Shown here in pieces: positions 2 through 29,345 of a DNA stretch of 64,000 bases; positions within the stretch are counted from its first letter, which is position 1, and each line of letters starts with the position of its first letter. The DNA comes from an uncultured delta proteobacterium. Lineage in GTDB: Bacteria > Desulfobacterota > Syntrophobacteria > BM002. Position numbers and translations under genes: made by a program. The DNA lies in contig CAVQGX010000032.1 in the NCBI GenBank assembly GCA_963712115.1, forward strand, positions 96,001 to 160,000, read 5' to 3'. A model generated the notes under the pieces. It was not told where the DNA came from. It worked only from the letters and a program-made list of their open reading frames with translations, and did no database searches.

Positions 2-148
2 CTGAGATTTCATCGTAAATCCCGGGATGAATGTCGTTTTCTTCTCTTAGACCTTGTCCGACATCATTTAGAGAAAGATCTCAAGTCTCTGAGGCTTCTC
101 CATCAGATAGGTGCATTAGAATCAACCAACAATTCTGCCAATCCCTAG
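2..148 (+). CDS. recO: DNA repair protein RecO, C-terminal end (partial, runs off the left edge)
   Basis: Frame 2 is open from the edge to TAG at 146-148: LRFHRKSRDECRFLLLDLVRHHLEKDLKSLRLL. The H-L-x-K-x-L-K-S-L ending resembles RecO, and recO-glyQ-glyS is a known gene order. Confidence 0.65.
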   Translation: MRFHRKSRDECRFLLLDLVRHHLEKDLKSLRLLHQIGALESTNNSANP

Positions 149-259: not shown

Positions 260-546
260 CTCATCCGTCTGCGGCGGAGTCACTTCTTGCCCGTCTGCAG
301 CCGGGAAAGTGGCACAGACCTTCCGCAGTCACTCAGAAGAGACATCAGCAAAGGCCAAAAGGGGAAGCTGCCAAACAACGAGCATCTGAGCAACCTTTCT
401 TTACGAATCTCAGCCTCGATGGGGCCTGCATGAAGATGTGGTGCTTCCTAAACAGGTACTCTGCCAATAAATGGCGCGAATATGATCGTTGTGGAGTAGC
501 TTCCCCGTGGCCCAAGTCACAGGACTATTTTGGGGGAAACTCCTGT
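260..546 (+). repeat. Dispersed structured element, copy 1 (copy 2 at 26950-27264, minus strand)
   Basis: High identity by eye to the reverse complement of 26950-27264; internal helices 361-371/496-506 and 375-381/486-492. Confidence 0.85.
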
Positions 547-557
547 GGACAATAGGC

Positions 558-586
558 TTGACAGACAACCGGCAGCAAGGTAATTT
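558..586 (+). promoter_or_regulatory. sigma70-type promoter for glyQS
   Basis: TTGACA-17 nt-TAATTT, ending 44 nt before the glyQ ATG; RBS AAGGAG. Confidence 0.6.
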
Positions 587-9311: not shown

Positions 9312-10592
9312 ATGAAAGACGTTCTAGCCTTTGTTATGGCAGGTGGTAGAGGGGAAAGGCTTATGCCACTCACAGAGGACCGTACTAAGCCTGCGGTTCC
9401 CTTTGGTGGAATTTATCGACTTATAGATTTGCCCTTGAGTAACTGTGTCAATTCGCAAATATACAAGATCATAGTTTTGCCCCAGTACAAGTCCCAGTCC
9501 CTCCACGATCATCTGGAAGACGGTTGGAACATATTCAATCGGAAGCTAGGCCATTTTCTCAAGATCGTCTCCCCCCAGCAGCGGATAGGTCTCGACTGGT
9601 ATCGGGGTACCGCCGACTCCATTCGCCAGAATCGTTATCTCGTTGAGCGCCATGGGTCGAGCCATGTCTTGATTCTTTCAGGTGATCACATTTACAAGAT
9701 GGACTACAGCCAATTTCTCAACTACCACAAAGAAAAGGAGGCCCATATTACCATCTCCCTTCTTGAGGTCGAAGCGGAACTGGCTTATCAGTTCGGCGTG
9801 GCCGAAGTGGATGAAGAATTTCGCATTCTTGGCTTTCAAGAGAAGCCCAAAAAAGACGCCAAAACCATTCCTGGCGATCCCAACCATATCCTCGCCTCTA
9901 TGGGCATTTACATCTTTCAGACCGAGGTTCTCATTGAAATATTAAAATCCGGCAATGAAGACGACTTCGGCCGTGACATAATTCCTAAATTACTGGATTC
10001 TTACCGGATCTATGCCTATCCTTACCGAAAGCAGAATAAGATTGAAGACTATATCTACGTGACCATGGAGGAGGGCGAACGGAGGTTGCAACTAGAGCCA
10101 CATACCCGAGATTCTGCCTATTGGCGTGACGTGGGCAACCTGGATGCCTATTGGAACGCCAACATGGATCTCACCGGAGTGGATCCTTATTTCAATCTTT
10201 ACGGGCAAAAGTGGCCCATTCACACCTATCAGGTTGCAGCGCCGCCCGCTAAGTTTGTATTTGCTACCGAACGGCTCGACGATTTTCGGGTGGGTAAAGC
10301 CCTTGATTCCCTGGTCGCTCCTGGTTGCATTGTTAGTGGCATAGTGCGAAACTCTGTACTGTCTCCCAACGTCATAGTTCGGAGTTGGGCTCAAATTGAC
10401 GAGTCAGTCATCATGAATAGAGTGGTGATAGGGCGACATTGTAAGATCAAAAAAGCGATTATTGATAAAAACAACTTAATCCCAGCCAAAACCACAATCG
10501 GCTACAACCCGAGCGAAGACCGAAAGCGTTTCACCGTGACCCCAAGGGGTATCGTGGTGGTACCGAAAGGGTATTTTAGGGAGGAGGAATGA
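9312..10592 (+). CDS. glgC: Glucose-1-phosphate adenylyltransferase
   Basis: AGGRGERLMPLT, KPAVPFGG, WYRGTAD, LSGDHIYKMDY, FQEKP and YWRDVG motifs. Confidence 0.96.
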   Translation: MKDVLAFVMAGGRGERLMPLTEDRTKPAVPFGGIYRLIDLPLSNCVNSQIYKIIVLPQYKSQSLHDHLEDGWNIFNRKLGHFLKIVSPQQRIGLDWYRGTADSIRQNRYLVERHGSSHVLILSGDHIYKMDYSQFLNYHKEKEAHITISLLEVEAELAYQFGVAEVDEEFRILGFQEKPKKDAKTIPGDPNHILASMGIYIFQTEVLIEILKSGNEDDFGRDIIPKLLDSYRIYAYPYRKQNKIEDYIYVTMEEGERRLQLEPHTRDSAYWRDVGNLDAYWNANMDLTGVDPYFNLYGQKWPIHTYQVAAPPAKFVFATERLDDFRVGKALDSLVAPGCIVSGIVRNSVLSPNVIVRSWAQIDESVIMNRVVIGRHCKIKKAIIDKNNLIPAKTTIGYNPSEDRKRFTVTPRGIVVVPKGYFREEE

Positions 10593-25349: not shown

Positions 25350-26768
25350 CTACTCATTTCCACCTTCCGTCTTCTGCTCTCTGTCTTCTGCCCTCTGTCT
25401 TCTGCCCTCTGCCTGCTTTCCCCTACTCCCCGTCCTCCGTCTTTGGCGCTCTTCCCGAACCTGGTGGCGCCAGTGCCTCAAACGCTCTGCCAGAGTCACC
25501 TCATAGCCTCGACTTGTGGGCTGGTAAAATTTAAGGTGCTGCAAATCCTCCGGCAGGTAACTCATGGGTACGTGAGCCTCCGGAAAATCATGAGGATAAC
25601 GGTAGTCGCGGCCATAACCCAACTTGCGCATCAGGCCCGTCGGTGCGTTGCGCAGCTCCATTGGTACTGGCAAGCTGCCCCTTTCCTCGGCCTGCCGGCG
25701 AGCTTCGGAGTAAGCCTCATAAAGGGCATTGCTTTTTGGCGCCGTCGCCAGATAGATTGCTGCTTCAGCCAGGGCCAGATCTCCTTCAGGCCGTCCCACT
25801 AAATGAAAGGCCTGCTGGGCTGCCACCGCTACCATAAGAGCCCGAGGATCGGCTAAACCCACATCTTCCGAGGCGAAACGCACCATTCTGCGAGCAATGT
25901 AAAGAGGGTCCTCTCCCGCCTCTAGCATTCTAGCAAGCCAGTAAAGGGCCCCGTCCGGATCGCTTCCGCGCAAACTTTTGTGGAGAGCCGAAATCAGGTT
26001 GTAGTGTTCCTCGCCGTCTTTGTCATAAATAAGAGACTTCTTCAGGATCGCATCTGCCATTGCCTGGCGGTCTACTTGACGATAACCACTCTCATCCTCA
26101 GCAGTAGTCTGCGCCGCCGCCTCCAAGCCACTCAGGGCCAAACGGGCATCTCCTTTTGCCGCTCGGATCAAATAAGTCAGGGCGTCATTGTCCACCTTGG
26201 GTCTCAGACCTCCCAATCCCCTTTCTTTGTCAGCCAGGGCGCGACGGAGAATAAGTTCCAGATCGGACTCATTCAAAGGTTCGAGCACCACCACTGGTGC
26301 TCGCGAAAGGAGTGGCGGAATGACTTCAAAGGAAGGATTCTCTGTGGTTGCCCCGAAAAAAGTTACCGTACCGTTCTCCACATATGGGAGGAGTAGGTCC
26401 TGCTGGGCCTTGTTGAAGCGATGAATTTCATCCACAAATAGTATAGTGGGCCTACCTATTTTTTGCCTGGCTTCATCTATGGCAGCACGAACGTCCTTGA
26501 CTCCAGCAGTGACAGCGGAAAGGTTTATCAGGTGAGCATGATTCTCTTGCGCTATTAACCGGGCCAGAGTGGTTTTACCGCAACCTGGTGGTCCCCAGAA
26601 AATTAGGGATTGCATCCGACCATGCTTGAGCAGACGGCCCAAAAGCTTTTGAGGAGCCATGATTTGCTCCTGCCCCACAAACTCAGCCACGGTGGTAGGC
26701 CGCATTCTCTCTGCCAGTGGTGCTTCTGACTCCCTGCCAGCCGTTGCAAAAAAATCCTCTTGTTTCAA
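25350..26768 (-). CDS. rarA: Replication-associated recombination protein A (RarA/MgsA)
   Basis: [48 protein letters not shown] and ASEDVGLAD motifs. Confidence 0.96.
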
Positions 26769-26908: not shown

Positions 26909-26937
26909 ACCTTACCCCAAGCATACTGGTTTGTCAA
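26909..26937 (-). promoter_or_regulatory. sigma70-type promoter for rarA
   Basis: TTGACA-17 nt-TAAGGT on the minus strand. Confidence 0.55.
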
Positions 26938-26949
26938 TGGAGGTAGGCA

Positions 26950-27264
26950 ACAGGAGTTTCGCCAAGAATATTATTGTGACATAGGCCACGGGAAGGCTAC
27001 TCCACAACGATCATATTCGCGCCATTTATTGGCAGAGTTCCTGTTCAGGAAGCACCACATCTTCATGCAACCCCTTTCAAGGCTGAGATTGTTAAGGATA
27101 GGTTGCTCAGATGCTCGTTGTTTCGCAGCCTCCCCTTTCGGCCTTTGCTGATGTCTCTTCTGAGTGACCTGCCCTGTTGAATCCCACCTTCGGTGGGTCC
27201 GCGGAGCGGAATTCAACAGGGCTAGCGGAAGGTCTGTGCCACTTCTCCGCCGACGGCGGATGAG
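26950..27264 (-). repeat. Dispersed structured element, copy 2, carrying a palindromic insert at 27171-27222
   Basis: Reverse complement aligns with 260-546; insert GCCCTGTTGAAT...ATTCAACAGGGC is absent from copy 1. Confidence 0.85.
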
Positions 27265-27451
27265 ACTCGGAACTATAGAAGAAACACCAGGAAACCATTT
27301 TTGTTTCCAAATCACCCACAACTCTATAATGAGCTGAATCCACAGCCACGAGGCAAGAAATTTTGGAGAAATTACTGAGGCAGGTAGGTGAGTAATGCGA
27401 GGGACTTTCGCTAATTACTAAGCGGGTGTAGTGGCTAGTGAGAAATCTTCC

Positions 27452-28159
27452 TTACTCTCCCAAATAGGCCTCCCTTACCTTGGGATTTTCCAACAGGGAG
27501 CGAGCCTTGTCTTCGAGTACAACCCTTCCAGTCTCAATAACATATCCGTAGTCAGCCAACTCCAGGGCAGCCTGGGCATTTTGCTCTACCAGAAGAATGG
27601 TAACACCCTGCTCCTCCCTGATCTGGCGGATTATGCCCATGATATGTTCTACTATCAAGGGGGCCAACCCCAAGGAAGGTTCATCCAGCAGAAGCAGCCT
27701 TGGGGTACTCATCAAACCTCTGGCAATGGCGAGCATTTGCTGCTCGCCCCCGGAAAGGGTCCCACCCACTTGCTTTCGTCGCTCCTCTAGAATGGGAAAA
27801 AGGGAAAAAGCCCTCATGAGGGAGTCATTGATCCCTTTTTTGTCCTTCCTCAAGTAGGCGCCAAGGGTAAGATTTTCCTGCACAGTGAGCAGTGGAAAAA
27901 TTCTCCGTCCTTCAGGTACCTGTACGATCCCCCGCCGCACGATCTCCTCAGGAGCGCGGCCATTGATGGCTTTTCCTTGGAACTCTATATCACCTGAGGT
28001 AATCCGCTGAATGCCGCTAATGGACATGAGGGTGGTGGATTTGCCTGCACCATTAGCACCTATGAGGCAGCAAATACTGCCCTCCTTGACCTCCAAGGAA
28101 ACTCCCTTCAAGGCGTGAATCTGCCCATAGTAGCTTTGGATTTCTTTAAGTTTTAGCAT
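27452..28159 (-). CDS. livF: Branched-chain amino acid ABC transporter ATPase LivF
   Basis: GANGAGKST, VPEGRRIF, LSGGEQQMLAI, LLDEPSLGLAP, VEQN; start taken at MLKLKE. Confidence 0.93.
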   Translation of the reverse strand: MLKLKEIQSYYGQIHALKGVSLEVKEGSICCLIGANGAGKSTTLMSISGIQRITSGDIEFQGKAINGRAPEEIVRRGIVQVPEGRRIFPLLTVQENLTLGAYLRKDKKGINDSLMRAFSLFPILEERRKQVGGTLSGGEQQMLAIARGLMSTPRLLLLDEPSLGLAPLIVEHIMGIIRQIREEQGVTILLVEQNAQAALELADYGYVIETGRVVLEDKARSLLENPKVREAYLGE

Positions 28160-29345
28160 CAGCCGAGCCCCTGCCGAGATAAGCTTCAATCACCCTCGGA
28201 TTGGCCCTGATTTCATCCGGGGTTCCTTGGGCAATGAGCACACCGTGATCAAGGGCATAGATATGGTCGGCTAGGTTCATCATCACTTTCATATCATGCT
28301 CGATGATCAGTACTGTGATCCCTTGGTCGCGGATTTTGCGGATAAGCTGCATGAGCCGAGATGACTCCTGGGGATTCATCCCTGCTGCCGGCTCATCCAG
28401 TAGTAGCAAGCGGGGGTGGGAAGCCAGGGCTCGAGCCAATTCCAGTCTCCGCTGCTCACCATAAGCCAGGGCCCCAGAAAGGTCGAAAGCCCTGTGCTCC
28501 AGACCCACGAACCTGAGATGCTCCAAGGCTTCTACTTCTATCTTTTTTTCTTCGTCTCGTTGGGAATGGGTGCGAAAAAGGGTGCCATATATTCTTTGAG
28601 CCATTCTTCCGTGAGCACCTATCCTGACGTTATCCAAAACACTCAAAGTAAGAAAGAGACGGATGTTCTGGAAAGTCCTGGCCACGCCCAACCTGTTAAT
28701 TGCGTCCGGGCCCAACCTGAACCCATAAAGATGACGCACTTCGCGCAGGAGCAACTGCCAGCCGAGATATGTGCTGAAGGCAATGGCCAGGATAGACCAC
28801 GGCAAAGCCAAATATGTCAGCGGCACCGCCACGCCAGGCAGGTGTCCCAGGGAAGCGGGGTGGGTCAACCACCAGATAGCCAGATAAAGGTCTCCCAGAA
28901 TAAAGACGAACATGGTGCTCCAGGCCCAAATTTCAAACTCTCTCAGGCCCCGCACCACGACCATCCGTATACTCAAAATAAAAATGGCCAGTAGAGTCAG
29001 CTCAACTTTAAAAAAGGTTCTGGGTAAGAAAAAAGACCAGAAGAGTACAATCCATGCCAGACTTAGAATTATAAAGAGCCAAGAAAGCCGCTGGACGAGC
29101 GCTGCTTTTCGGCTCGAAAGTTTTGGCACAACCGACTTTTCTTGAAAGAGCACTTGGCCTTCCGTGGGATAGTAAAGCCCCGTAAGGCAGTTAAAAAGAG
29201 TGGTCTTTCCTGCGCCGTTGGGCCCGATAATGCCCACGATCTTGCCGGTCTCCACCTCTAGACTTACCCGGCTCAGGGCGCTGAGGCCCCCGAAAACTTT
29301 GGAAAGCTCACTAACCCTGAGGATAGAATCCATACTAAGGTTCAC
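28146..29345 (-). CDS. livG: ABC ATPase LivG with a ~137-aa hydrophobic insertion
   Basis: GPNGAGKTT, RTFQNIRLF, LAYGEQRRLE, LLDEPAAG, IEHDM; residues ~73-209 are four hydrophobic segments. Confidence 0.88.
   Translation of the reverse strand: MNLSMDSILRVSELSKVFGGLSALSRVSLEVETGKIVGIIGPNGAGKTTLFNCLTGLYYPTEGQVLFQEKSVVPKLSSRKAALVQRLSWLFIILSLAWIVLFWSFFLPRTFFKVELTLLAIFILSIRMVVVRGLREFEIWAWSTMFVFILGDLYLAIWWLTHPASLGHLPGVAVPLTYLALPWSILAIAFSTYLGWQLLLREVRHLYGFRLGPDAINRLGVARTFQNIRLFLTLSVLDNVRIGAHGRMAQRIYGTLFRTHSQRDEEKKIEVEALEHLRFVGLEHRAFDLSGALAYGEQRRLELARALASHPRLLLLDEPAAGMNPQESSRLMQLIRKIRDQGITVLIIEHDMKVMMNLADHIYALDHGVLIAQGTPDEIRANPRVIEAYLGRGSADAKT

Follow-up and report, generated by a model that had tools for sequence, protein, structure and literature searches.

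A dispersed repeat with two copies in a 64,000-nt stretch of DNA from an uncultured delta proteobacterium (assembly GCA_963712115.1, contig CAVQGX010000032.1, positions 96,001–160,000 of the forward strand; hereafter the window) tends to insert just upstream of promoters that belong to its host. We consider it highly probable that the repeat is a family of IS4-like MITEs whose preferred target-arm motif is also that of the -35 hexamer, and that it carries a conserved, hairpin-closed core as a passenger.

A dispersed repeat family of one bacterial family

The stretches 260–546 and 26950–27264, which a sequence-only reading of the window had called homologous, are indeed related: alignment of 200–640 with 27340–26880 gave a mean column identity of 79% between the two copies, and the identity of their cores was ∼87–89%. 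The same reading had described the element as present twice, which is true of the window alone. A 321-nt query found 34 matches in the window's own genome, 18 of which cover most of the conserved core, and we therefore count ∼18 near-full copies. With a full copy as the BLAST query, a match was found in 20 of the 21 other genomes of the same family (family f1) whereas the 19 genomes sampled from five further families of the class gave none. Similarly, a covariance model of the core (R1), run with Infernal's stricter filters against 122 genomes of the class, matched 21 genomes, all of them from family f1 and always at full length, and matched 0 of the 100 genomes outside this family. Overall, the results indicate that the element is a dispersed repeat family of this bacterial family, and that it is real and statistically solid.

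Anatomy of the element and of the two copies in the window

Full copies open with CAGGAGTTTCCCCAAAAAT and close with its reverse complement and thus carry 19-bp terminal inverted repeats, including perfect pairs such as that at positions 10316–10783 of contig C20. The exact 19-mer occurs 8 times in the window's own genome; at ≤2 mismatches it was found at 31, 13, 11, and 117 sites in four relatives, compared with 0–1 sites for the same sequence read backwards as a control. Most two-ended copies among the 36 first found are about 235–570 bp long (a range also given as 265–570 bp). Between the repeats lies first a long hairpin with variable GC-rich inserts, which we call arm A, and then a 167-nt core, the right edge of which is 30 nt before the right repeat; a full element comprises one or two such large hairpin modules and no gene. 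Folding of the whole element was far better than that of shuffled sequences on either strand (z = -6.1 and -7.3), as it is in palindromic MITEs.

When the copies were aligned with long flanks, the homology extended further to the left than position 260. The boundaries drawn from the window alone were thus too narrow, and the two copies occupy 166–545 and 26951–27377. Further, both copies carry the right-end 19-nt repeat, at 527–545 and 26951–26969, which corrects the earlier statement that no terminal inverted repeats were seen.

Copy 1 (166–545, + strand) lies in the spacer between recO, the stop codon of which is at 148, and glyQ (631–1512); these and the other gene names used here derive from Pfam matches. 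Its left repeat and ∼70 nt are missing: the host flank shared by relatives stops at ∼158, and homology to the element starts at ∼166. Arm A of this copy contains a nested GC-rich hairpin repeat (220–255, + strand), a separate dispersed repeat that is found at 9 further loci free of the MITE and in some MITE copies and not in others. The 167-nt core follows at 349–515 (+ strand; R1 hit of 193.8 bits), with a stem of three helices, P0, P1, and P2, closing a sequence-conserved interior. The right inverted repeat (527–545, + strand) has 1 mismatch to the 19-mer, and the copy terminates in CTCCTG at 545. Copy 2 (26951–27377, - strand) lies between an ABC-ATPase gene on its upstream side (27452–28189) and rarA/MgsA (25350–26768). 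Along with its right repeat (- strand), it retains a degenerate left repeat (27359–27377, - strand; 4 mismatches), a core at 26981–27147 (- strand; R1 hit of 186.8 bits), and, in arm A, a 56-nt hairpin insert (27169–27224, - strand) that is also present in a copy on contig C12.

Target-site duplications and empty sites

Among 58 distinct two-ended elements, 30 are flanked by a direct repeat (≤1 mismatch) of 6–14 bp, 20 of these repeats being 9 or 10 bp long; for the other 28 elements, no flanking duplication was found at this threshold. CCTCAAGTAA and CCTCAAGAAA border an insertion on contig C23, and in three relatives (G016, G002, and G007) the same flanks are joined, with a single copy of the duplicated sequence and no element. 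In the recO-glyQ spacer, the element is present in the window's own genome (G000) and in G006, and 12 relatives have the site without it. The inverted repeats, the duplications, and the filled and empty sites among relatives bear out the earlier suggestion that the element is mobile.

Many copies, including copy 1 in the window, are truncated on the left. Because the break of these copies has no duplication, we read them as decayed insertions rather than as 5'-truncated retro-copies, and truncation of the retrotransposition type was rejected for the same reason. Translation of a full copy gave no Pfam hit. By these structural marks, the element is best explained as a non-autonomous DDE DNA transposon, i.e. 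a MITE.

The sequence-only reading had favored mobilization through RNA or single-stranded DNA, in which case the copies could be remnants of an IS200/IS605-TnpB omega RNA, an IS110 bridge RNA, a retroelement, or a SINE-like sequence. A structured and conserved block does adjoin one end of the element, left-truncated copies are numerous, and the length of the duplications is spread over 6–14 bp. However, full copies have 19-bp inverted repeats and ∼10-bp duplications, the marks of DDE cut-and-paste transposition, and the truncated copies lack a duplication at the break. Also against such mobilization, no ORF lies in the copies or regularly beside them, none of the omega-RNA, HEARO, or IS605-type families in the Rfam library used matched, the TTGAC preference described below is common to relatives that lack the core, and the nucleotides leading from the element end to TTGAC are not conserved. 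We give RNA-guided or RNA-mediated mobilization very little credence.

A distant transposase associated with the 19-bp repeat

An exact scan for the 19-mer, covering species-representative genomes, found it in at least 114 stretches. Among the matches listed, most stretches are in MAGs labeled Syntrophobacterales, Deltaproteobacteria, or Desulfobacteraceae, and several contigs are in MAGs labeled Aminicenantales, Verrucomicrobiota, and Acidobacteriota; because ∼4 hits are expected by chance for a collection this large according to our own estimate, isolated matches in other taxa carry little weight. Next to the 19-mer in the MAGs of Aminicenantales and Verrucomicrobiota lies an ORF of up to 427 aa. 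The 427-aa product matches PF01609 (DDE_Tnp_1) with 38.5 bits (cut-off, 23), and its best NCBIfam matches are IS4-family models at 52 bits, which is below their cut-offs of 150–160; models of IS701 also score weakly. The distant transposase is thus putatively an IS4-like DDE enzyme, an assignment that rests on sub-threshold NCBIfam scores. At ∼8 of 12 ends of transposase-bearing elements (two MAGs; read by eye), GTCAA stands 11–14 nt outside the repeat. The 19-mer is all that these elements have in common with the MITE, and the core is absent from them. The locus L213, with the 427-aa transposase gene at 873–2153 on the minus strand, runs off its contig end, and another locus (L181) is 1132 bp long with an ORF of 317 aa; a full-length autonomous partner with two ends and flanking duplications was not recovered among the 19-mer loci.

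The 427-aa protein had no match in the 22 genomes of the window's family, in a search that was run without a positive control. Repeated segments of ≥700 bp in the window's own genome, including IS-like ones, have ends unrelated to the 19-bp repeat, and none of the PF01609 hits in this genome and four relatives is bounded by it. Several candidate partners were rejected. The 1.7-kb and 2.4-kb repeat pairs of genome G018 have ordinary genes inside; an IS701-like gene beside a copy in the same genome has its own, different repeats; and on contig C61, close to the contig end, a fragment of the left end of the element adjoins a gene that, as judged by eye from its motifs, is presumably of the PilZ type and not a transposase.

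In the family survey by De Palmenaer et al. (2008, PMC2266710), members of the IS4 family are described as generating ∼10-bp target duplications, compared with ∼5 bp in IS701, ISH3, and IS1634, and some members of the IS4 family are described as having marked target-arm specificity. The value of ∼10 bp agrees with the duplication mode of 9–10 bp in the MITE. We infer that an IS4-like DDE transposase supplied in trans would cut and paste the element.

Copies accumulate upstream of host promoters

Both copies in the window end just upstream of a σ70 promoter, as had been noted from the sequence alone. Beyond copy 1, the glyQ promoter occupies host DNA outside the element (546–586, + strand) and consists of a 12-nt flank, TTGACA at 558–563, a 17-nt spacer, and TAATTT at 581–586. 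Beyond copy 2, the rarA promoter, likewise in host DNA (26909–26950, - strand), consists of a 13-nt flank, TTGACA at 26937–26932, a 17-nt spacer, and TAAGGT at 26914–26909.

To extend the comparison to the whole repeat family, the 45–60 nt outside every distinct element end were compared, with left ends reverse-complemented. TTGAC, which with a final A is the σ70 -35 hexamer, was found 11–14 nt outside 27 of 93 distinct ends (∼0.4 expected by chance), at offset 12 in 15 of them, and the promoter association thus persists in additional copies. The motif occurred 32 times within 45 nt of the 93 ends, 27 of these at offsets 11–14, and the reverse motif GTCAA was not found at these offsets at any of the 93 ends. 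Position counts over the ends revealed a T/A-rich, -10-like signal 17 nt beyond TTGAC, and at least 9 of 12 positions of TTGACA-16..18-TATAAT were matched at 29 of 94 ends, compared with 0.5% of 5000 random genome positions. These pooled counts overstate independence because some loci contribute flanks from more than one genome. Consistent results were obtained with the window's own genome only, in which the ends are independent except for one duplicated contig pair (C37/C68): TTGAC was present at 10 of 32 ends compared with 0.57% of 20,000 intergenic positions, and the promoter match at 11 of 32 ends compared with 1.2%.

When both ends of the same element were considered, TTGAC was located on the left only in 9, on the right only in 13, and on both sides in 2 of the 58 two-ended elements, and it was always directed away from the element. 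The exact motif was in neither arm of the other 34, and the TTGAC preference is thus partial. Because the duplications are 9–10 bp long, TTGAC begins 2–3 bp beyond the duplicated segment, i.e. in the target arm.

The glyQ locus separates targeting of promoters from their supply by the element. The promoter block, from 12–14 nt before the -35 hexamer through the -10 hexamer, is kept in 12 of 12 relatives that are free of the element at this site, and also in G006, where the element is present. Contigs of element-free strains from public sequencing runs join the glyQ promoter at 546/548. The DNA further upstream varies in every genome and contains other repeats, among them a different MITE that, in two of the genomes, terminates at the same glyQ boundary.

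The sequence-only reading had left open whether the element targets promoters or supplies them. A -35 hexamer or a whole promoter that formed part of the mobile unit would explain why TTGACA stands at a fixed distance from a conserved end. However, copies are unrelated to one another in the 11–14 nt leading up to the hexamer, in the spacer, and in the -10 hexamer; the duplications begin directly at the inverted repeat, which places the hexamer outside the mobile unit; and the 12 relatives without the element at this site keep the glyQ promoter together with the 12 nt that precede it. Supply of promoters by the element is therefore most improbable, and that half of the earlier claim falls, whereas the other half stands: the promoters are host-owned, the glyQ promoter predates the insertion, and the element targets promoters by landing beside them.

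The association could also have arisen by selection after random insertion, with only copies that land just upstream of promoters being harmless enough to persist. The copies do lie in intergenic DNA, and of the 10 copies in the window's own genome that are truncated on the left, 6 retain the promoter-side end, as would fit deletions that are tolerated only on the far side; in addition, further repeats have gathered in the recO-glyQ spacer and stop at the same boundary. Selection of this kind nevertheless predicts broad distances, whereas the distances seen are concentrated at offsets 11–14, and the intergenic control reaches only 0.57%. It is further opposed by the transposase-bearing relatives in other phyla, which show the same spacing, and by the outward TTGAC at either or both ends, which is the expectation for a symmetric transposase dimer. 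We judge selection alone to be a distinctly unlikely source of the promoter link, and selection after insertion may be a contributor to it.

On the preferred reading, an IS4-like MITE family with a target-arm preference, target choice would include TTGAC in the target arm, 2–3 bp outside the duplicated segment of ∼10 bp. Because TTGAC(A) is the -35 hexamer, copies would accumulate 12–13 bp upstream of pre-existing host promoters, facing away from them and leaving them unbroken.

Structure and conservation of the core

The closing helix GGGGAAGCTGC/GTAGCTTCCCC and its altered form in copy 2 are both present as first described, and the base-pair covariation proposed for it is supported by compensatory changes across 47 copies. 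In a MAFFT alignment of these copies, pair 19/157 is GC in 21, AU in 19, and GU in 4 copies, and pair 17/159 is GU in 17, GC in 15, and AU in 8 copies. Over 71 distinct copies, 19 of the 50 pairs in the model showed a two-sided change, compared with 9.6 ± 1.9 in shuffles, none of 500 of which reached 19; this 71-copy alignment (A4) was fitted to the model, and because the copies are related, few independent events stand behind the pair counts. The model paired 91% of cells and slid controls 36–50%. Two-sided changes were seen in 5 of 5 pairs of helix P0, 6 of 11 of P1, 4 of 9 of P2, and 3 of 4 in one small hairpin of the core, compared with 1 of 13 in the long interior helix, which has many unpaired cells, and 0 of 5 in the GCCA/TGGC hairpin. 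The full set of hairpins in the sequence-only reading fared no better than chance (5 two-sided pairs compared with 4.3 in shuffles; 220 of 500 shuffles reached 5), and of its small hairpins only CCT/GGG shows any two-sided change.

Across two genera, 37 core columns are invariant and 61 nearly invariant, whereas the 30-nt spacer between the core and the right repeat differs between the genera. The mean single-sequence fold energy of the core is -67.5 kcal/mol on the + strand and -59.9 kcal/mol on the - strand. The count of G-U cells is 303, compared with 62 for A-C cells; as the + strand was the one used to predict the structure, this excess is in part circular. Rfam, with its HEARO, IS605-type, 6S, and ribozyme families included, gave no match at gathering score over the 64-kb window, in agreement with the earlier description of the element as unrecognized, and at E ≤ 10 only two spurious lncRNA matches were obtained over 150–700.

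One reading frame is open through the whole C20 copy, and the core varies most at the third codon phase (summed entropies, 8.2, 5.7, and 11.0). However, stops interrupt the best frame of the core in 11 of 47 copies, 1–2-nt indels between copies break the frame, and we found neither a Pfam hit nor any likeness of the open frame to the 427-aa transposase. The core was therefore rejected as a present-day gene.

The core appears to be a passenger

A 325-bp subfamily in genome G010 has both repeats and arm A, lacks the core, and has multiplied as well, and in short elements of G018 the core is inverted relative to a remnant of the arm-A hairpin. Together with the transposase-bearing relatives, which also lack the core, these elements argue that the core is a passenger and not part of the transposition machinery. 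Further, because a TTGAC flank is common to core-less relatives, the core cannot be the target guide. As judged from these comparisons of elements, the core is dispensable for movement and plays no part in target choice.

Whether this passenger acts as an RNA is a separate question. A structured non-coding RNA, transcribed from the + strand and working for the host or the element as an insulator, stabilizer, or processing site near promoters or as a trans-acting small RNA, is a possible but doubtful account of the core. The covariation of P0, P1, P2, and one hairpin, the invariant columns beside a diverging spacer, and the better folding and G-U excess of the + strand all favor it. Set against these are the absence of an Rfam family, the unsupported long interior helix and GCCA/TGGC hairpin, the model-fitted alignment of related copies, the multiplication of the core-less subfamily, and the fact that correction between hairpin arms at the DNA level can mimic compensatory change. 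No internal consensus σ70 promoter or intrinsic terminator was found in the element.

Conservation at the glyQ locus also speaks against an RNA cargo. Between G000 and G006, identity there is 83.9% in the core, compared with 93.3% in glyQ and 92.7% in the promoter, and is 70.5% in the 5' UTR; the two elements could be independent insertions at one site. The orientation of the core relative to neighboring ORFs is mixed, with the upstream ORF running in the same direction in 9 of 18 copies according to a crude scan for ORFs.

In metatranscriptome contigs (four runs from three studies), the depth of the core was ∼6–40-fold the summed depth of the flanking glyQ, as would be expected of an expressed RNA. 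With ∼20 copies per genome, contigs that show neither strand nor transcript ends, and possible DNA carry-over, this depth could equally be that of the genomic copies and decides nothing on expression. Our best guess is that the compensatory change in the closing stem and the sequence conservation of the interior stem from selection for a single strand that folds, probably as a + strand read-through transcript, and we regard the core as a well-delimited candidate for a lineage-specific structured RNA.

A bolder combination is that the transposase reads the -35 hexamer itself or σ70-bound promoter DNA as a landmark for safe landing 12–13 bp upstream of promoters, and that the core represents a new class of cis-acting structured RNA placed at dozens of promoters per genome, where it would, for example, shield the promoter from read-through or tune it; we think this unlikely.

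Discussion

An IS4-like MITE family with a conserved passenger has close parallels in the MITEs and mobile insertion cassettes derived from IS4-family insertion sequences, such as MIC231/IS231. Like the element, IS4-derived MITEs and cassettes are short units that have no gene or carry a passenger, are bounded by DDE-type inverted repeats, and are moved in trans. They differ in that their passengers are genes, whereas a conserved non-coding hairpin module takes that place here, and no cognate transposase was found among the 22 genomes of the host family.

Small bacterial repeats associated with promoters or structure, such as Correia/NEMIS, ERIC, and REP/BIME/REPIN, resemble the element in being dispersed intergenic palindromes that can be co-transcribed and fold. 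Their ends, sizes, and targets are different, the target of Correia elements being TA, and to our knowledge none of them is located at a fixed distance upstream of -35 boxes. The bridge and seek RNAs of IS110/IS1111 and the omega RNAs of TnpB/IscB are similar to the core in forming a conserved structured non-coding block near one end. However, those elements have neither long inverted repeats nor ∼10-bp duplications and encode a recombinase or nuclease beside the RNA, whereas the copies described here contain no such gene and their target preference is independent of the core.

The ∼10-bp target duplications that PMC2266710 describes for the IS4 family are shared by the element, and IS4-subgroup elements with conserved target arms likewise have their specificity outside the duplicated segment and on both sides of it. 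What differs is that the motif here coincides with the σ70 -35 hexamer and is followed at 16–18 bp by a -10 hexamer at approximately one-third of the ends. A full-text literature search, outside the listing of target consensus sequences in PMC2266710, found no report of a TTGAC or -35 target.

For genome annotation, we recommend masking such repeats as a MITE family rather than annotating them individually as non-coding RNA genes. The TTGAC preference and the conserved, hairpin-closed passenger set the element above an ordinary MITE, and the core is a candidate structured RNA in uncultured bacteria of the sulfate-reducer/syntroph type. Should the target preference be borne out, the element would represent a family of bacterial DNA transposons with a fixed landing position just upstream of σ70 promoters, where it would avoid gene disruption and set a mobile module beside many promoters, and it could offer a tool for promoter-proximal insertion.

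Copies of the MITE in the own genome and in relatives

We note that many contig pairs of the delta proteobacterial assembly are near-duplicates, with 97–99.8% identity over kilobases (for example, C37/C68, C30/C65, and C43/C70), and because of this duplication the MITE copy counts given for this genome are slightly too high. The near-duplicate contigs fit with the reported level of contamination, or mixing of strains, of ∼6% in this assembly.

Both window copies of the MITE contain smaller hairpins. In copy 1 (upstream of glyQ), a GC-rich hairpin repeat of 30–36 nt lies inside arm A at positions 220–255; it is also present on 9 other contigs of the same genome, and it is found within arm A in some MITE copies and free-standing at other places. 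In copy 2 (upstream of rarA), an insert of 56 nt, a hairpin with a perfect stem, separates arm A from the core (27169–27224, minus strand). The same insert is shared with one other MITE copy, on contig C12 (locus L012), and looks like another small mobile palindrome.

Next to glyQ, the relatives G014 and G004 (loci L078 and L079, respectively) carry a different MITE of ∼270 bp, which occupies the same boundary, ∼12 nt upstream of the −35 element of glyQ; its repeats start with CCGGATAATTCATGA and are flanked by TTAG/CTAG. Short tandem heptamer-like repeats fill this spacer in other relatives. In G018, one MITE copy carries an IS701-like element (L143:918–2297; 422-amino acid ORF, repeats AATACTACTACGTTAAGTAATT) within or next to its arm A; the right end of this MITE copy, too, lies 12 nt from TTGACA-17-TATAGT, followed by an ORF. 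Further, at two loci labeled Acidobacteriota (L188 and L191, the same contig) with identical left flanks, the 19-mer of the terminal repeats starts a longer repeated unit; this unit is followed by an ORF whose start, judged by eye, looks group II intron reverse transcriptase-like.

Coding potential, promoter-like motif, and helix P1

The MITE copy on contig C20 (L002:1282–1746, plus strand) has one frame open across the whole 468-bp element (155 codons), and variation in the core peaks at the third phase of this frame; a search for protein homology of the 155-codon frame found none. Among the copies with an arm A, most keep the motif TGGCAC-N5-TTCC ∼25 nt upstream of the core (window 310–324); it resembles a sigma54 −24/−12 promoter, but without the GC at −12.

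The sequence-only reading had listed P1 (361–371/496–506), part of the closing stem of the core, as a helix. Its arms (GGGGAAGCTGC and its partner) point outward and agree in 9 of 11 positions with the inner part (GGGGAAACTCC) of the terminal repeat (527–545). In transposase-bearing relatives from other phyla, too, a second motif, inverted and repeat-like, lies ∼100 nt inward of one end. P1 could be a subterminal transposase-binding pair instead of an RNA helix.
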